From Kiloniellales bacterium (GTDB lineage: Bacteria; Pseudomonadota; Alphaproteobacteria; Kiloniellales; JAKSDN01), in assembly GCA_050330055.1 (NCBI GenBank), contig JBHJOF010000004.1:1-53003 (forward strand): a DNA stretch of 53,003 bases. Direction: 5' to 3'. Under the pieces are notes generated by a model. The model searched no databases. It saw nothing but the letters and a program-made list of their open reading frames with translations, and had not been told where the DNA came from. The position numbers and the translations under genes are program-made. Of the stretch, positions 32,071-37,701 are shown piece after piece. Position 1 is the stretch's first letter. Every line of letters starts with the position of its first letter.

Positions 32071-33219
32071 CTAGAGGCCGAGCCAACCGGCGACGATGTT
32101 GCGCTGGATCTCCGAGGTGCCGGAGTAGAGGCGGCTGCCCACCGCATCGCGCAGCGCCCGCTCGACCTCGTACTCGGTCAGGAAACCGTAGCCGCCGAAC
32201 AGCTGGATCGTGTCGAGCGCCGCGCGGAGCAGGGACTCGCTCACGAACAGCTTCGAGATCGAGGCATCGAGAGACACGCTCTTCGAGCGCTCGAGGTTCC
32301 ACGCTGCCTTGTAGGTCAAGAGGCGCGCCGCCTCGAGTTGCACCTTCATGTCGGCGATCTTGTGCGCTACCGCCTGAAAGGTGGCGATCGTCTTTCCGGA
32401 CTGCCGCCGGGTGCGGGCATAGTCGATCGCCCTTTCGATCAGCCGTTCGATAGTCCCGACGTGGGTGGCGAAGAGACAGCTGCGCTCCCATTCCATGGAA
32501 TGGACGAACAGTGGTGCGCCCGCCCCGACGCCGCCCAGCACGGCCGCGGCCGGCACGCGCACCTCCTCGAACAGCAGCTCGCTGAAAGGCGAGGTGCGCA
32601 GGCCCATCTTCTCGAACTTCTGGCCCACCCGGTAGCCGAGCGTGTCGCGCTCGACGATGAAGGCGGTGATGCCGCCATGGAAGCCCCGCTCAGGGTCGGT
32701 GACCGCAAACACGAGGGCAAGGTCGGCGACCGGCCCGTTGCTGATGAAGGTCTTCGTGCCGGTGATGCGAAAGCCGTCGCCGTCGGGCTCGGCGCGGGTA
32801 CGGAGCGCAAAGGCATCGGAGCCGGAGCCCGGCTCCGTCATGGCATTGGCGGCGATCAGGCGGCCGTCACACAGACCAGGCAGATAGCGCTGCTTCTGTT
32901 CCTCGCTTCCGAACTTCCAGATCGGCACGACGCAGGACAGCAGGTGCGCCGCGACCGAGAAAACGAGACCGGAGTCCTCGCAGCCATAGCCGAAGGACTC
33001 GAGGGCGATCGCCGTCGACAGGGAATCGAGGCCCGCGCCGCCGTACTCCGCCGGCACCGGCAGGCCGGTCAGACCCATCTCGGCACAGGCCTGCCACAGT
33101 TCGCGCTGGAACAGCTGGCCGCGATCGCGCTCGATCATCCCGTCGTTCAGCTTGGCCCGGGCGAAGCGCGTAATCTCGGCGCGCAGGATTCGCTGCTCCT
33201 CGCTCAACGCGAAATCCAT
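32071..33219 (-). CDS. acyl-CoA dehydrogenase family flavoenzyme (probably acts on a carrier-protein thioester)
   Basis: 382 aa with the full ACAD fold blocks (AMTEPGSGSD, FISNGPVADL, GYGFLTEY). The MCAD-type catalytic Glu position reads YSGTSE (Ser366). A Glu is present at the IVD-type position (MEWERS, Glu245). The start overlaps the ligase stop (TGATG). Confidence 0.85.
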   Translation of the reverse strand: MDFALSEEQRILRAEITRFARAKLNDGMIERDRGQLFQRELWQACAEMGLTGLPVPAEYGGAGLDSLSTAIALESFGYGCEDSGLVFSVAAHLLSCVVPIWKFGSEEQKQRYLPGLCDGRLIAANAMTEPGSGSDAFALRTRAEPDGDGFRITGTKTFISNGPVADLALVFAVTDPERGFHGGITAFIVERDTLGYRVGQKFEKMGLRTSPFSELLFEEVRVPAAAVLGGVGAGAPLFVHSMEWERSCLFATHVGTIERLIERAIDYARTRRQSGKTIATFQAVAHKIADMKVQLEAARLLTYKAAWNLERSKSVSLDASISKLFVSESLLRAALDTIQLFGGYGFLTEYEVERALRDAVGSRLYSGTSEIQRNIVAGWLGL

Positions 33220-35103: not shown

Positions 35104-37701
35104 CTATCGGGGAAAAGTCGACGCTATATGATCGTCCGTTTGGCGCAGGAGGTCGTAGAGTCGATCTGCGATCAGCTGATGACCGAGCACGTTCGGGTGG
35201 TGATCCCAGCGTGCGACCCACAACGACGATAGGTCATGCCCCTCGTAGACGCCTGTGAGATCGATCACGGCAAAGCCCGCCTCGCGCGCAAGACGCGCCT
35301 CTAGCTCCGGCATGCTGCCCTCGTCCGACTTTTCCGGCCGTGGCAGAAAGGCCCAAACCACCGGGACGCCTTGCTCCAGGCTGACATCCGCCATCCGCTG
35401 ATAGACAACAGACAGGATCCCCTCTTCGTAGGGTGCGAGCTTGCGTTCCAACACGTAGGGATCCGTCGTCCTGTCGATATCGCTTTCCCTGACGGCTGCT
35501 TTGGCAAGTATTTCATGGCGGACGTCGTAGGGCTGGTTGATTCCCTTCTGCAGGACCTCCGCAATCGTGCTGATCACGGTCCTGGCCACATCGGCATGCT
35601 CAACGTAGAGGATCAGGTCAGGAGAGAAGTCGAGCACCTTGCTTTCTAGCTGCACGAGGCGCTGAAGGGGACTGTAGGCGCCTACGCCGAAGTTCAGGAC
35701 TTCGTATCGAGCATAGTTGCTGCCGGAAACTGCGCTGTTAAGTCGCTCCTCCAGAATGGCGCCGAAGGTCTCGTCGTTCTCGACGCCATTGCCAAAAACG
35801 AAGGAGGCGCCGAGCAGCGCAATGCGGAACGTTGCTGGCGGCGGAGTCTTCTCATAGTCTCGGTCGCGCATCCCCCAGCGGTTTGTGCGCACGAGCGCTC
35901 CCGCATGCCGCATCTCAAGCGACGGCCGCAGAGCGAACAGCATCAAGTTTGGTGTTTCCTGGACGAGGTCCGACTCGCGCAGTCGGCCCCACTCCTCCGG
36001 TCGCGTTCGGTAGACCTCCCAAAGCTCGGCATTGAACACGCCGACATCGAGAAGGCTTTCGTAGTATCCCCCTTCGAACTTGGCGAAGTCGCGCCGATTG
36101 AGCTCGGAGTCCCTCAGGCTGGCCATCAGCTGGCGCGCCGTCGAGCCCAAGGGCTCGTAGACGGCCGGAAGCGAAACGATGAGCAGCAATGTGGCAGCCA
36201 CGGTCATCCGCGCCGCCGATTGCACAAAGTTGAATTTCCAGTCGGCCTGGCCGCGCGCGAGCAGGGCCGCCGGCACGGCCACGCCAAGCGCGGCCGCGAG
36301 CAGCATTGCCACGGCCTCCGGGTAAAGCTCCTGCGCCTGCCACAGCACCGCCCAAATGGAGAGCCACTCGCCAACCGAGCTGGCACTCCAGAACGACCAG
36401 AGTAGCGCGATGGAAAGGAACACGCCTAGCGTGCGCAGCGCCGTCGTCGCCGTTTCGCGCAGGGACAAGGCCTCTCCCGCCAGCCTCCGTCTGCGGCCCT
36501 TTTTTGTTTCATAAACCGCGTTGACGACGACCAGCAGGCCCAGAAATCCCCAAAAGAGGCTGTCGTTCCAACTCACCAGCGCCGCACCGCGAATCCAGAA
36601 CCACTGATAGGAGTGCAACAGCCATGTCATGAAAAATGCGCAAAGCGTCGCGATCACCAGTGCCGCGGTTTCGCCATGCCCGCGTATTCTGAAGAACACC
36701 GGATAGAACACCACTTTCATTATGAAGTCTTTCCAGTAGATGTTTATCCGCCGCCAGAAATCGGTGAAGCTCGATGACAGGAAGTAGAGCTTGTGCGTTT
36801 CCGGGAGATTGAATCCAAAGAGGTGTAGTAGCCCCGTGATGATGTGAAAAGTGCCGGAGACGCGCAGATAGAGAAGGAACGGCCACAGGAAGTACTGCAC
36901 GGCGTCACGGCTGTTTGCGACGTCAGCCGCGTCGATGACGAAGTTGTGATAAATCAATCGGTAGAGAATGAGGTGCAGGACTCCGCGGAAAAGCCAGTGG
37001 ATTCCCGTCTGATAGATCTCATGCCGGTCAGGCTGGTTGTAGTAGGTCCGCCGAAACGTCTGGAAATCGACGACCGGAAACAGCGGAAAACAGACGTTCG
37101 GCAGCATGAAGAAATAGGCGAGCGTCTGCGAAAGACTTGCCGGTTTGCTTTCGTGCCGCAGGTGATGGAGATAGAGGATCATCCGGAACATGACCATCGA
37201 GGCAACGATCGGCCAAATGGCGTTCGACCAAGGCACCGGGATCAGGTCCGCCCGGGCGAGCGCAAGAACGCCGCCCACCGCGACTAGCAGGGCAACCCGC
37301 AGGGCAAAGCGCACTGGCAGATGGCACAGCACGATGAGCCCGAGGACGATGGCGATGATCCAGGCGCCCTGCGCGAGGCCTTGCAGCGACCACTGTTCTT
37401 CCTGAAATCCGAAAACCAGCTCGATGCCGACCAGCGATAGGAAGACGAAGAATGGCAAGCGAAAGCGGAACGGCAGGAGGTAGTGAATGGACCAGCCGAC
37501 AAAGATCAGAATCGAGAGGTGCAGGAAGGCCCGGCTCTCCAGCCTGAACTGATAAACCAGAAGAATAAAGAGGCCGAGCTGAAATCCAATGGCAACATAG
37601 TGTCCGAGGCTAAATCCCTGCCCCTTGGCTAGGGTCAAGACCTTGGTCGCGTGCGACGCCGCCGTGCCAAACGTGGGTATAGTCAAAGCAATGCCCCCCA
37701 T
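35104..37701 (-). CDS. MBOAT (DltB/AlgI-like) membrane acyltransferase fused to a C-terminal SGNH/DltD-like domain
   Basis: 865 aa. The polytopic N-terminal half has the MBOAT signature GFNLPETHKLYFLSSSFTDFWRRINIYW and invariant-type His363 (TWLLHSYQ). The C-terminal soluble domain, from about residue 520, has FRIALLGASFVFG (Ser633) and RWDHHPNVLGH (Asp833/His835). Confidence 0.8.
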   Translation of the reverse strand: MGGIALTIPTFGTAASHATKVLTLAKGQGFSLGHYVAIGFQLGLFILLVYQFRLESRAFLHLSILIFVGWSIHYLLPFRFRLPFFVFLSLVGIELVFGFQEEQWSLQGLAQGAWIIAIVLGLIVLCHLPVRFALRVALLVAVGGVLALARADLIPVPWSNAIWPIVASMVMFRMILYLHHLRHESKPASLSQTLAYFFMLPNVCFPLFPVVDFQTFRRTYYNQPDRHEIYQTGIHWLFRGVLHLILYRLIYHNFVIDAADVANSRDAVQYFLWPFLLYLRVSGTFHIITGLLHLFGFNLPETHKLYFLSSSFTDFWRRINIYWKDFIMKVVFYPVFFRIRGHGETAALVIATLCAFFMTWLLHSYQWFWIRGAALVSWNDSLFWGFLGLLVVVNAVYETKKGRRRRLAGEALSLRETATTALRTLGVFLSIALLWSFWSASSVGEWLSIWAVLWQAQELYPEAVAMLLAAALGVAVPAALLARGQADWKFNFVQSAARMTVAATLLLIVSLPAVYEPLGSTARQLMASLRDSELNRRDFAKFEGGYYESLLDVGVFNAELWEVYRTRPEEWGRLRESDLVQETPNLMLFALRPSLEMRHAGALVRTNRWGMRDRDYEKTPPPATFRIALLGASFVFGNGVENDETFGAILEERLNSAVSGSNYARYEVLNFGVGAYSPLQRLVQLESKVLDFSPDLILYVEHADVARTVISTIAEVLQKGINQPYDVRHEILAKAAVRESDIDRTTDPYVLERKLAPYEEGILSVVYQRMADVSLEQGVPVVWAFLPRPEKSDEGSMPELEARLAREAGFAVIDLTGVYEGHDLSSLWVARWDHHPNVLGHQLIADRLYDLLRQTDDHIASTFPR

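Follow-up and report, generated by a model that had tools for sequence, protein, structure and literature searches.

A 53,003-nucleotide (nt) window of contig JBHJOF010000004.1, from a Kiloniellales bacterium, carries a four-gene cassette (32071-37701, minus strand) that may attach a proline-derived acyl group to a molecule outside the cytoplasmic membrane. Its products are a membrane protein that joins an MBOAT-fold domain to an SGNH domain (here, the fusion), a small carrier protein, a stand-alone adenylation enzyme (the ligase), and a flavoenzyme of the acyl-CoA dehydrogenase family; "the window" denotes the whole stretch of DNA analyzed. We consider it highly probable that proline is loaded and oxidized on the carrier and likely, with less assurance, that the fusion uses that carrier and delivers to an extracytoplasmic acceptor. 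Taken as a whole, the chain from proline through a pyrrolyl carrier and the MBOAT-SGNH enzyme to an extracytoplasmic acceptor is the account that we favor on balance. The most general form of the proposal is tentative, a possibility that we would put no higher than that: in more than ten phyla, bacteria may use a relay like that of Dlt to place pyrrole-2-carboxylate esters, in some lineages halogenated ones, on a surface or secreted polymer.

In the open reading frame (ORF) listing of the window, the four genes form a translationally coupled series. The fusion gene (35104-37701, minus strand) ends in a TAG stop at 35104-35106 and is followed by a 47-nt spacer, which holds an AGGAG ribosome-binding site 8 to 9 nt 5' of the carrier ATG (35056). 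At the next two junctions, stop and start codons overlap: ATGA (34784-34787) between carrier and ligase, and TGATG (33217-33221) between ligase and flavoenzyme. A first-pass annotation of this DNA had described these coordinates, the strand, and the three junctions, all of which were borne out on reading the sequence; its inference of a high-GC, Gram-negative-type genome is reasonable given window genes that include COQ7, DsbB, and crotonyl-CoA carboxylase/reductase. Together with the chemoreceptor, ugp/glp, and methylmalonyl-CoA-mutase-family genes, this content suits a ubiquinone-producing species of the Pseudomonadota, probably one of the Alphaproteobacteria. Public gene calls on the same contig agree for the carrier, ligase, and flavoenzyme (90, 522, and 382 amino acids [aa], respectively). 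The fusion start is uncertain (37639-37701): the protein has 865 aa in the longest ORF and 844 aa in the public call, which begins 21 codons later; alignments with relatives do not start before about residue 14 to 50, and residues 1 to 27 are predicted to be disordered. Promoter and terminator scans returned counts no greater than those for shuffled sequence, and an Rfam scan gave a tRNA as its sole match, with no riboswitch in the 500-nt leader of the fusion gene.

The predicted proline-to-pyrrole trio

The ligase (33219-34787, minus strand, 522 aa) passes the cut-offs of the Pfam models AMP-binding and AMP-binding_C and that of the NCBIfam amino-acid adenylation domain TIGR01733 (378 bits against 317), which groups it with amino-acid adenylation domains and not with fatty-acyl or aryl ligases. 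The first-pass annotation had likened it to DltA on the strength of several motifs; these motifs (FSSHAPFHFDLSILDIF, IWYSTPS, FAGEVFPV, and NLYGPTE) are all present in the translation and the assignment to amino-acid adenylation stands, but the closest characterized ligase is PltF rather than DltA. Models for DltA fail on the protein (TIGR01734, 268 bits with a cut-off of 560; NF003417, 273 bits with a cut-off of 476), and DltA entries in the PDB match with E values of 1e-58 to 1e-60, compared with 1e-104 for the best single-domain match, PltF (6O6E), the L-proline ligase of pyoluteorin biosynthesis. The two-module protein LgrA tops the PDB list only through the summing of two domains. When the pocket region was searched alone, PltF again ranked first (E = 5.5e-55), and pocket positions 235, 236, 239, 278, 299, 301, 322, 330, and 331 are identical to those of PltF, within the alignment blocks FDLS(I/V)LD, IWYS(T/V)PS, LFAGE, and NL(Y/F)GPTETNVC. 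The specificity code, DLLSLALVCK in our own mapping, is kept in 44 of 58 cassette orthologues and differs once in 11 more. Because the pocket is identical to that of PltF, and PltF is also the closest relative, the substrate can be named: the ligase is predicted to be specific for L-proline, and the likely acyl group is pyrrole-2-carboxyl. An assignment as an exosortase-associated ligase was rejected, as TIGR03098 scored 269 bits against a cut-off of 592.

The carrier gene (34784-35056, minus strand) begins at an internal ATG of a 145-aa ORF, and its 90-aa product passes the Pfam PP-binding model PF00550 (25.8 bits against 20.8), in keeping with the earlier description of a small carrier protein with a DSL motif. 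It contains two DSL triplets; Ser41, in the usual GxxDSL context (GILDSLA), is the phosphopantetheine serine, so that the protein has the form of a type II carrier such as that of the PltF/PltL/PltE trio. The best PDB matches are type II peptidyl carriers, including the Bmp1 carrier (6CXT_A) and PltL, which rank above DltC, and both DltC models fail (NF003464, 35.6 bits with a cut-off of 68; TIGR01688, 25.6 bits with a cut-off of 52). The best NCBIfam model for the carrier pointed to ornithine-lipid synthesis, a pathway comprising a carrier, the GH3-like OlsH, and the alpha/beta-hydrolase OlsI (PMC12493201). That lead was rejected: the carrier reached 92.7 bits where the cut-off is 130, the cassette lacks a GH3-like OlsH gene, and the sole alpha/beta hydrolase nearby (27769-28503) lies outside it.

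The flavoenzyme (32071-33219, minus strand, 382 aa) passes the cut-offs of all three Acyl-CoA_dh Pfam domains. In NCBIfam it scores highest with PigA (458 bits, cut-off 500) and RedW (431 bits, cut-off 650), below the cut-off in both cases, and its top PDB matches are AnaB (4IRN; E = 2.4e-116), the prolyl-peptidyl carrier protein (PCP) dehydrogenase 5ZW0 (E = 1.6e-94), and Bmp3 (6CXT_B; E = 1.5e-93), each of which outranks ordinary acyl-CoA dehydrogenases. These matches agree with the earlier proposal that the enzyme is of the type that oxidizes aminoacyl-S-carrier proteins, and we predict it to be a prolyl-S-carrier-protein dehydrogenase. The motifs HSMEWER and YSGTSEIQR are common to it and AnaB; the second of these motifs carries a serine at the position of the catalytic glutamate of medium-chain acyl-CoA dehydrogenase. 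Relatives number in the hundreds, at 69 to 82% identity and all of 382 to 383 aa, and some sources label them L-prolyl-PCP dehydrogenase; the closest named relative is from a Sphingomonadales metagenome-assembled genome (MAG). By these comparisons, the ligase, carrier, and flavoenzyme make up a predicted proline-to-pyrrole trio rather than a DltA/DltC pair, with the same three protein types as PltF/PltL/PltE, RedM/RedO/RedW, PigI/PigG/PigA, the Bmp1 carrier with Bmp3, and AnaC/AnaD/AnaB.

The extent of the oxidation is suggested by genes that adjoin the cassette in other genomes. In a forward census of 80 fetched loci, which were scored by tblastn with the four window proteins, a flavin halogenase adjoins the cassette in 10 loci and is the commonest extra family among the flanking genes. 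It also ranks first (8 members) in a Pfam census of 135 immediate neighbors from 39 loci, followed by an extra GDSL protein (5 members) and then by scattered polysaccharide genes. The best PDB match of the halogenase is the pyrrolyl-S-carrier brominase Bmp2 (E = 8e-72), with Mpy16 and PltA next. Since Bmp2-like halogenases act on pyrrolyl-S-carriers, no other indirect evidence speaks as strongly for a pyrrole as the tethered product; their presence lends indirect support to a four-electron oxidation and implies halogenated pyrrole variants. The halogenase loci are mainly from Chloroflexota, with others from Pirellulales, Binatia, Chthoniobacterales, and Gemmatimonadales. The genes lie at 15737-17080 in locus L019, 7895-9304 in L020, 7897-9306 and 16226-17620 in L025, 15910-17289 and 19026-20447 in L030, and 6601-7869 in L089; L032, L043, L048, L067, L077, and L078 also have them.

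The MBOAT-SGNH fusion and a proposed relay

The fusion comprises a multi-pass MBOAT-fold domain (about residues 30 to 510), a flexible linker, and a C-terminal SGNH domain (about residues 560 to 860). An AlphaFold2 model built on 25 diverse relatives has a mean predicted local distance difference test (pLDDT) score of 80 and a predicted template modeling (pTM) score of 0.71. Foldseek placed three DltB entries, 8JEM and 6BUG among them, at the top of the list for the N-terminal half (E = 8e-7 to 2e-6; template modeling [TM] scores of 0.56 to 0.59, normalized to DltB) and four PORCN entries next, all seven being MBOATs; for the C-terminal half, it returned SGNH esterases and thioesterases (TM scores of 0.6 to 0.73). 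The MBOAT identity of the N-terminal half is supported by this predicted fold, which is its single source. In the C-terminal half, the Pfam GDSL model matches 21 of the 25 relatives and gives a weak match to the window protein (E = 4e-5, below the cut-off).

Candidate catalytic residues are invariant across the 85 homologues that were compared, from 74 loci. Ser633 (codon 35803-35805, minus strand), the predicted SGNH block I nucleophile in LLGASF, is kept in all 85, as are Asn670, Asp833, and His835; in a weak profile match to the esterase 9OTV, Ser633 falls on the GDS serine and His835 on the catalytic histidine. These data support an SGNH domain with a putative Ser633-Asp833-His835 triad and Asn670 at the oxyanion position. 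His363 (codon 36613-36615, minus strand), the candidate MBOAT histidine, lies in the motif LLHSYQWFW of a predicted transmembrane helix (residues 344 to 371) and is likewise invariant (85/85), and His286 is kept in 84 of 85. The earlier reading of an MBOAT fused to an SGNH-like domain is upheld by the predicted fold and these residues, and its choice of His363 and Ser633 as catalytic positions agrees with their invariance and, for Ser633, with the weak 9OTV alignment.

A basic GRRRR-containing loop (residues 402 to 413) is followed by three hydrophobic helices. If the loop is cytoplasmic, as the positive-inside rule indicates, the three helices after it would place the SGNH domain and the linker outside the cytoplasmic membrane. 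In Dlt and PatAB, the acyl group passes to the tyrosine of an FxYxxF motif at the outer face and from there to the SGNH serine (PMC12148441). The linker that follows the last transmembrane helix of the fusion has a GYYE motif (Gly545-Tyr546-Tyr547-Glu548; codons 36058-36069, minus strand), which is invariant in all 85 homologues and falls in a region (residues 540 to 556) with pLDDT below 50. By analogy with the FxYxxF of DltX and PatA, a GYYE tyrosine is a candidate acyl shuttle. The tyrosine of an AVYE sequence at the end of the last helix was rejected for this role, as it varies among homologues.

We propose the following sequence of events. The ligase would activate L-proline and load it onto the phosphopantetheine arm of the 90-aa carrier, and the flavoenzyme would remove electrons, most likely four, from the carrier-bound prolyl group to give pyrrole-2-carboxyl-S-carrier, the reaction performed by PltE, RedW, PigA, and Bmp3. 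The MBOAT domain would then receive the loaded carrier at its cytoplasmic face, in the way that DltB receives DltC, and His363 would catalyze acyl transfer to a residue at the outer face, for which the GYYE-loop tyrosine is the candidate. Finally, the acyl group would move to Ser633 of the periplasmic SGNH domain and from there to an acceptor outside the cytoplasm, most likely a polysaccharide, at one of its hydroxyl or amino groups. The first two steps rest on strong sequence evidence, and we infer the last two from the fold, the invariant residues, the topology, and the gene linkage. The first-pass annotation had likewise put forward export to an envelope glycan or lipid as an inference.

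Recurrence, mobility, and setting of the cassette

The fusion is widespread. More than 3,491 relatives are found among 90%-identity clusters, the family forms 1,034 clusters at 50% identity (E ≤ 1e-30), and a scan of one genome per species detected it in at least 515 species. Hosts include Mesorhizobium, Acidobacteriota, Burkholderiales, Accumulibacter, Rhodocyclaceae, Gemmatimonadota, Chloroflexota, Planctomycetota, Verrucomicrobiota, Binatia, and Eisenbacteria, among others. The four genes recur together across more than ten phyla. All four are present in 44 of the 80 census loci, 29 of them in the order and spacing of the window; restricting the count to loci flanked by 6 kb or more on each side leaves 41, of which 32 carry the full set and 23 keep the canonical order. 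The association, recurring in dozens of unrelated genomes, is far beyond chance and sustains the earlier view of the four genes as a conserved unit. Among the partner genes, that of the carrier accompanies the fusion most consistently (68 of 80 loci), and 14 of these 68 loci, many of them short-flanked, lack a ligase or dehydrogenase gene in the fetched DNA. Clustering of all flanking ORFs revealed no further broadly conserved family, and there was no conserved small ORF common to the loci, in a screen that covered ORFs of 90 aa and above.

A reverse check from the flavoenzyme gave a similar picture: at least 10 of 19 matches on contigs of 20 kb or longer appear to share a contig with the fusion, a count in which one case was confirmed by look-up and the rest were judged indirectly or from fetched loci. 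Six flavoenzyme relatives were looked up directly, and the fusion is present in four (L085, L087, L088, and L089). The other two, L084 (a Sphingomonadales MAG; trio at 6210-9149) and L086 (trio at 6424-9412), have the trio, but a fusion gene is missing from the 8 kb around it; the trio can thus occur apart from the fusion. Their dehydrogenases are 72 to 77% identical to that of the window, and the trios neighbor sulfotransferases, a GT2 enzyme, an asparagine-synthase-like protein, a membrane-anchored stand-alone SGNH protein, and a nonribosomal peptide synthetase module; the trio may also work with another type of downstream partner. In 10 loci (L010, L012, L019, L022, L031, L033, L047, L067, L069, and L079) the fusion gene occurs as two to three tandem paralogues, each with its own carrier gene at L019, L069, and L079, and such copies may serve different acceptors or positions.

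Cultured carriers of the cassette include Mesorhizobium muleiense CGMCC 1.11022, M. amorphae CCBAU 01570, M. wenxiniae, Pseudothauera rhizosphaerae CC-YHH848, and Microvirga sp. VF16, which makes the hypothesis directly testable. The single full-length relative in the plasmid collection is from Microvirga sp. VF16 plasmid pMVF16-2 (L083; record 705295-711495), where it is unannotated. In this case, the four genes lie on a 1.39-Mb replicon of a cultured rhizobial isolate, with the fusion gene divergent from those for the carrier, ligase, and dehydrogenase.

The window cassette is bracketed by a tRNA gene and a partial copy of it. About 500 nt upstream of the fusion gene is a tRNA-Leu(CAA) gene (38205-38291, plus strand; found by ARAGORN and scoring 58.9 bits with the Rfam tRNA model), whose 3' 34 nt before the CCA (38256-38289, plus strand) recur as a perfect copy at 32015-32048 (plus strand), 23 nt past the dehydrogenase stop. 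A 77%-identical copy of the tRNA promoter region (38160-38198) precedes the left repeat at 31983-32021. Only the four genes and their leader, 6.2 kb in all, lie between the repeats, where the GC content is 0.53 to 0.66 versus 0.68 to 0.75 outside. This arrangement shows that the cassette has moved as one 6.2-kb piece, which is independent support for a functional unit. No integrase is encoded between the 34-nt repeats, and the left copy is without the 5' 57 nt of the tRNA. The geometry is odd, as the intact tRNA is at the end where canonical 3'-end integration would put the partial copy. Targeting of tRNA genes as a general property was rejected, given that a tRNA lies by the cassette in only 2 of 39 loci (L018 and L050).

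The surroundings of the cassette in other genomes bear on its acceptor. A Mesorhizobium cassette sits inside a cluster encoding a Wzx flippase, three GT4 enzymes, a polysaccharide pyruvyl transferase, and an initiating sugar transferase, and cassettes of close relatives adjoin genes for GT4 enzymes, UDP-GlcNAc 2-epimerase, Wzy_C, sulfotransferases, adenosine 5'-phosphosulfate (APS) kinase, and ATP sulfurylase. From this glycan-biosynthesis context, the acceptor is most likely a polysaccharide, in some cases a sulfated one, and is not the same in all lineages; the recurring sulfotransferase, APS kinase, and ATP sulfurylase genes hint at sulfation of the decorated polymer. Sulfation genes lie at 9188-10063 in L084, 3407-5322 in L086, 12928-14718 in L087, 9257-10650 in L088, and 16921-17149 in L089. 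In the window, the neighbors on one side encode a SnoaL-like protein, a VTT/DedA protein, DsbB, and COQ7, and on the other side are the tRNA, a gene for a trypsin-like protein with a peptidoglycan-binding domain, and a ugp/glp cluster.

Alternatives, related systems, and further features of the window

Several observations weigh against the proposed chain. The MBOAT half was unseen by Pfam and NCBIfam in searches of the whole protein and of the N-terminal half at E values up to 10; Pfam also did not detect it in 25 family members at E values up to 1, and a family profile of the fusion searched against PDB sequences gave no MBOAT match. His363 is a candidate equivalent of the DltB catalytic histidine by its place in the model, not by residue-level alignment, the canonical FxYxxF shuttle motif is not present in the fusion, and the GYYE tyrosine is put forward by analogy only. 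No acceptor pathway was constant near the cassette in the neighbor census, and the window neighbors are unrelated to any such pathway. The fusion stands without any partner in 10 of the 80 loci, though several of these have short flanks, and L084 and L086 have a trio but no fusion gene close by. The flavoenzyme does not reach the equivalog thresholds set for PigA and RedW, and AnaB, its best PDB match, stops at the two-electron product.

The last of these points raise the prospect that the flavoenzyme also stops after two electrons, so that a dehydroprolyl (pyrroline-carboxyl) or even a prolyl group would be exported, and the bit score for AnaB (392, versus 320 and 317 for the pyrrole-forming relatives) fits that account. 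We nevertheless think it unlikely: NCBIfam ranks the models of the pyrrole-forming PigA and RedW highest, the halogenases found with the cassette are of a type that acts on pyrrolyl-S-carriers, and a pyrroline thioester or ester would probably be labile as a surface decoration. Still less probable is that the fusion is an acetyl-CoA-dependent O-acetyltransferase like PatA/PatB or AlgI/AlgJ, for which the carrier is not the donor; it would merely act on the same polymer or product, and another enzyme would attach the proline-derived group. All characterized MBOAT-SGNH pairs other than Dlt do use acyl-CoA (PMC12148441), and the separation of trio and fusion in L084, L086, and some other loci is as this account would have it. 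Yet no other transferase is conserved with the trio, the carrier gene lies directly 3' of the fusion gene and is its most constant neighbor, the best fold match is the carrier-dependent DltB, and the window islet is made of the four genes alone.

The least probable of the alternatives is that the SGNH domain is a hydrolase and the module exports free, or halogenated, pyrrole-2-carboxylic acid as a diffusible metabolite. The best folds for the SGNH half are indeed esterases and thioesterases, and a cassette that has no conserved acceptor pathway and can travel as a bare four-gene islet would suit such a role. A membrane relay is a costly route to the hydrolysis of a thioester, however; frequent placement in polysaccharide and sulfation loci better suits a polymer acceptor, and the two to three tandem fusion copies in 10 loci suggest different acceptors or positions.

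As a carrier-fed relay to an extracytoplasmic acceptor, the cassette would combine features of systems that have been described separately. Like Dlt of Firmicutes, it has a stand-alone ligase to load an amino acid on a small carrier, an MBOAT to take the acyl group, and an SGNH domain to finish the transfer outside. Unlike in Dlt, the predicted substrate is L-proline rather than D-alanine, a flavoenzyme that would modify the tethered group is added, and MBOAT and SGNH domains form one polypeptide with no separate DltD. The DltX microprotein and FxYxxF motif of Dlt were not seen, the fusion having the invariant GYYE loop instead; curated DltA, DltC, and MBOAT models score below cut-off or give no match; and hosts are mostly Gram-negative and environmental phyla. 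The cassette thus appears to work like Dlt but, by curated models, is not a member of the Dlt family. In the pyrrole trios, the pyrrolyl carrier feeds a ketosynthase, a polyketide synthase, or a soluble acyltransferase and yields a cytoplasmic small molecule, whereas the only conserved downstream partner here is the membrane MBOAT-SGNH enzyme. With CloN and CouN, of clorobiocin and coumermycin biosynthesis, a carrier-bound pyrrole-2-carboxyl group ends as an ester on a noviose hydroxyl; that route differs in using a soluble cytoplasmic acyltransferase on a small-molecule antibiotic, not an envelope polymer.

Envelope acylation in Gram-negative bacteria offers further parallels. PatA/PatB (peptidoglycan), AlgI/AlgJ/AlgX (alginate), and WssH/WssI (cellulose) pair an MBOAT with an extracytoplasmic SGNH protein acting on envelope polymers, and PatA/PatB-type pairs, like the fusion, have extra helices after the MBOAT core (PMC12148441). 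These pairs differ from the cassette in their acyl-CoA donor, the lack of a carrier, the use of two proteins, and a C-terminal FxYxxF. OatA and OafA resemble the fusion in joining a membrane acyl-relay domain to an outside SGNH domain in one polypeptide but are AT3-SGNH fusions, with an acyltransferase-3 membrane domain and acetyl-CoA as donor (PMC12148441).

The first-pass annotation had considered the four-part system undescribed, and we found no curated family or paper for this combination. In full-text literature searches, no publication connected MBOAT or DltB to prolyl or pyrrolyl carrier proteins, or pyrrole-2-carboxyl to surface polysaccharides. NCBIfam has no model for the fusion, and sources label its relatives hypothetical, "SGNH/GDSL hydrolase," or, at JGI, "DltB (MBOAT superfamily)"; the genes are annotated as hypothetical or SGNH hydrolase because the MBOAT half escapes current sequence models. 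If the proposal is correct, the cassette would represent a previously unknown class of envelope decoration encoded by a horizontally mobile module, the first natural-product building block routed to the cell surface, and the second carrier-protein-fed MBOAT relay after Dlt, moving an unusual aromatic acyl group in mainly Gram-negative and uncultured environmental lineages; the other characterized bacterial MBOAT-SGNH systems outside Dlt all transfer acetyl from acetyl-CoA. It would also join two fields so far unconnected, pyrrole natural-product enzymology and cell-envelope acylation. The family includes plant symbionts (Mesorhizobium and Microvirga) and the wastewater phosphate-accumulating Accumulibacter, organisms in which surface chemistry bears on symbiosis, flocculation, and recognition by phages and predators.

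Elsewhere in the window are two metabolic clusters. One (8570-14171) is assigned to the ethylmalonyl-CoA pathway and encodes an acyl-CoA dehydrogenase with an N-terminal extension of about 180 aa (8570-10282), crotonyl-CoA carboxylase/reductase (10551-11918), and a methylmalonyl/ethylmalonyl-CoA-mutase-like protein (12087-14171) that is taken as an enzyme of that pathway. The other (40519-49333) is devoted to glycerol-3-phosphate uptake and use and encodes an unusually long solute-binding protein of about 700 aa, a permease, two UgpC-like ATPases, GlpD, and a GlpR/DeoR repressor. An HNH endonuclease is encoded by a stand-alone ORF (28735-29412; HNH_5, E = 7e-18) about 2.6 kb away from the left 34-nt repeat, between the alpha/beta hydrolase gene and the COQ7/DsbB genes, and the window also contains chemoreceptor genes.

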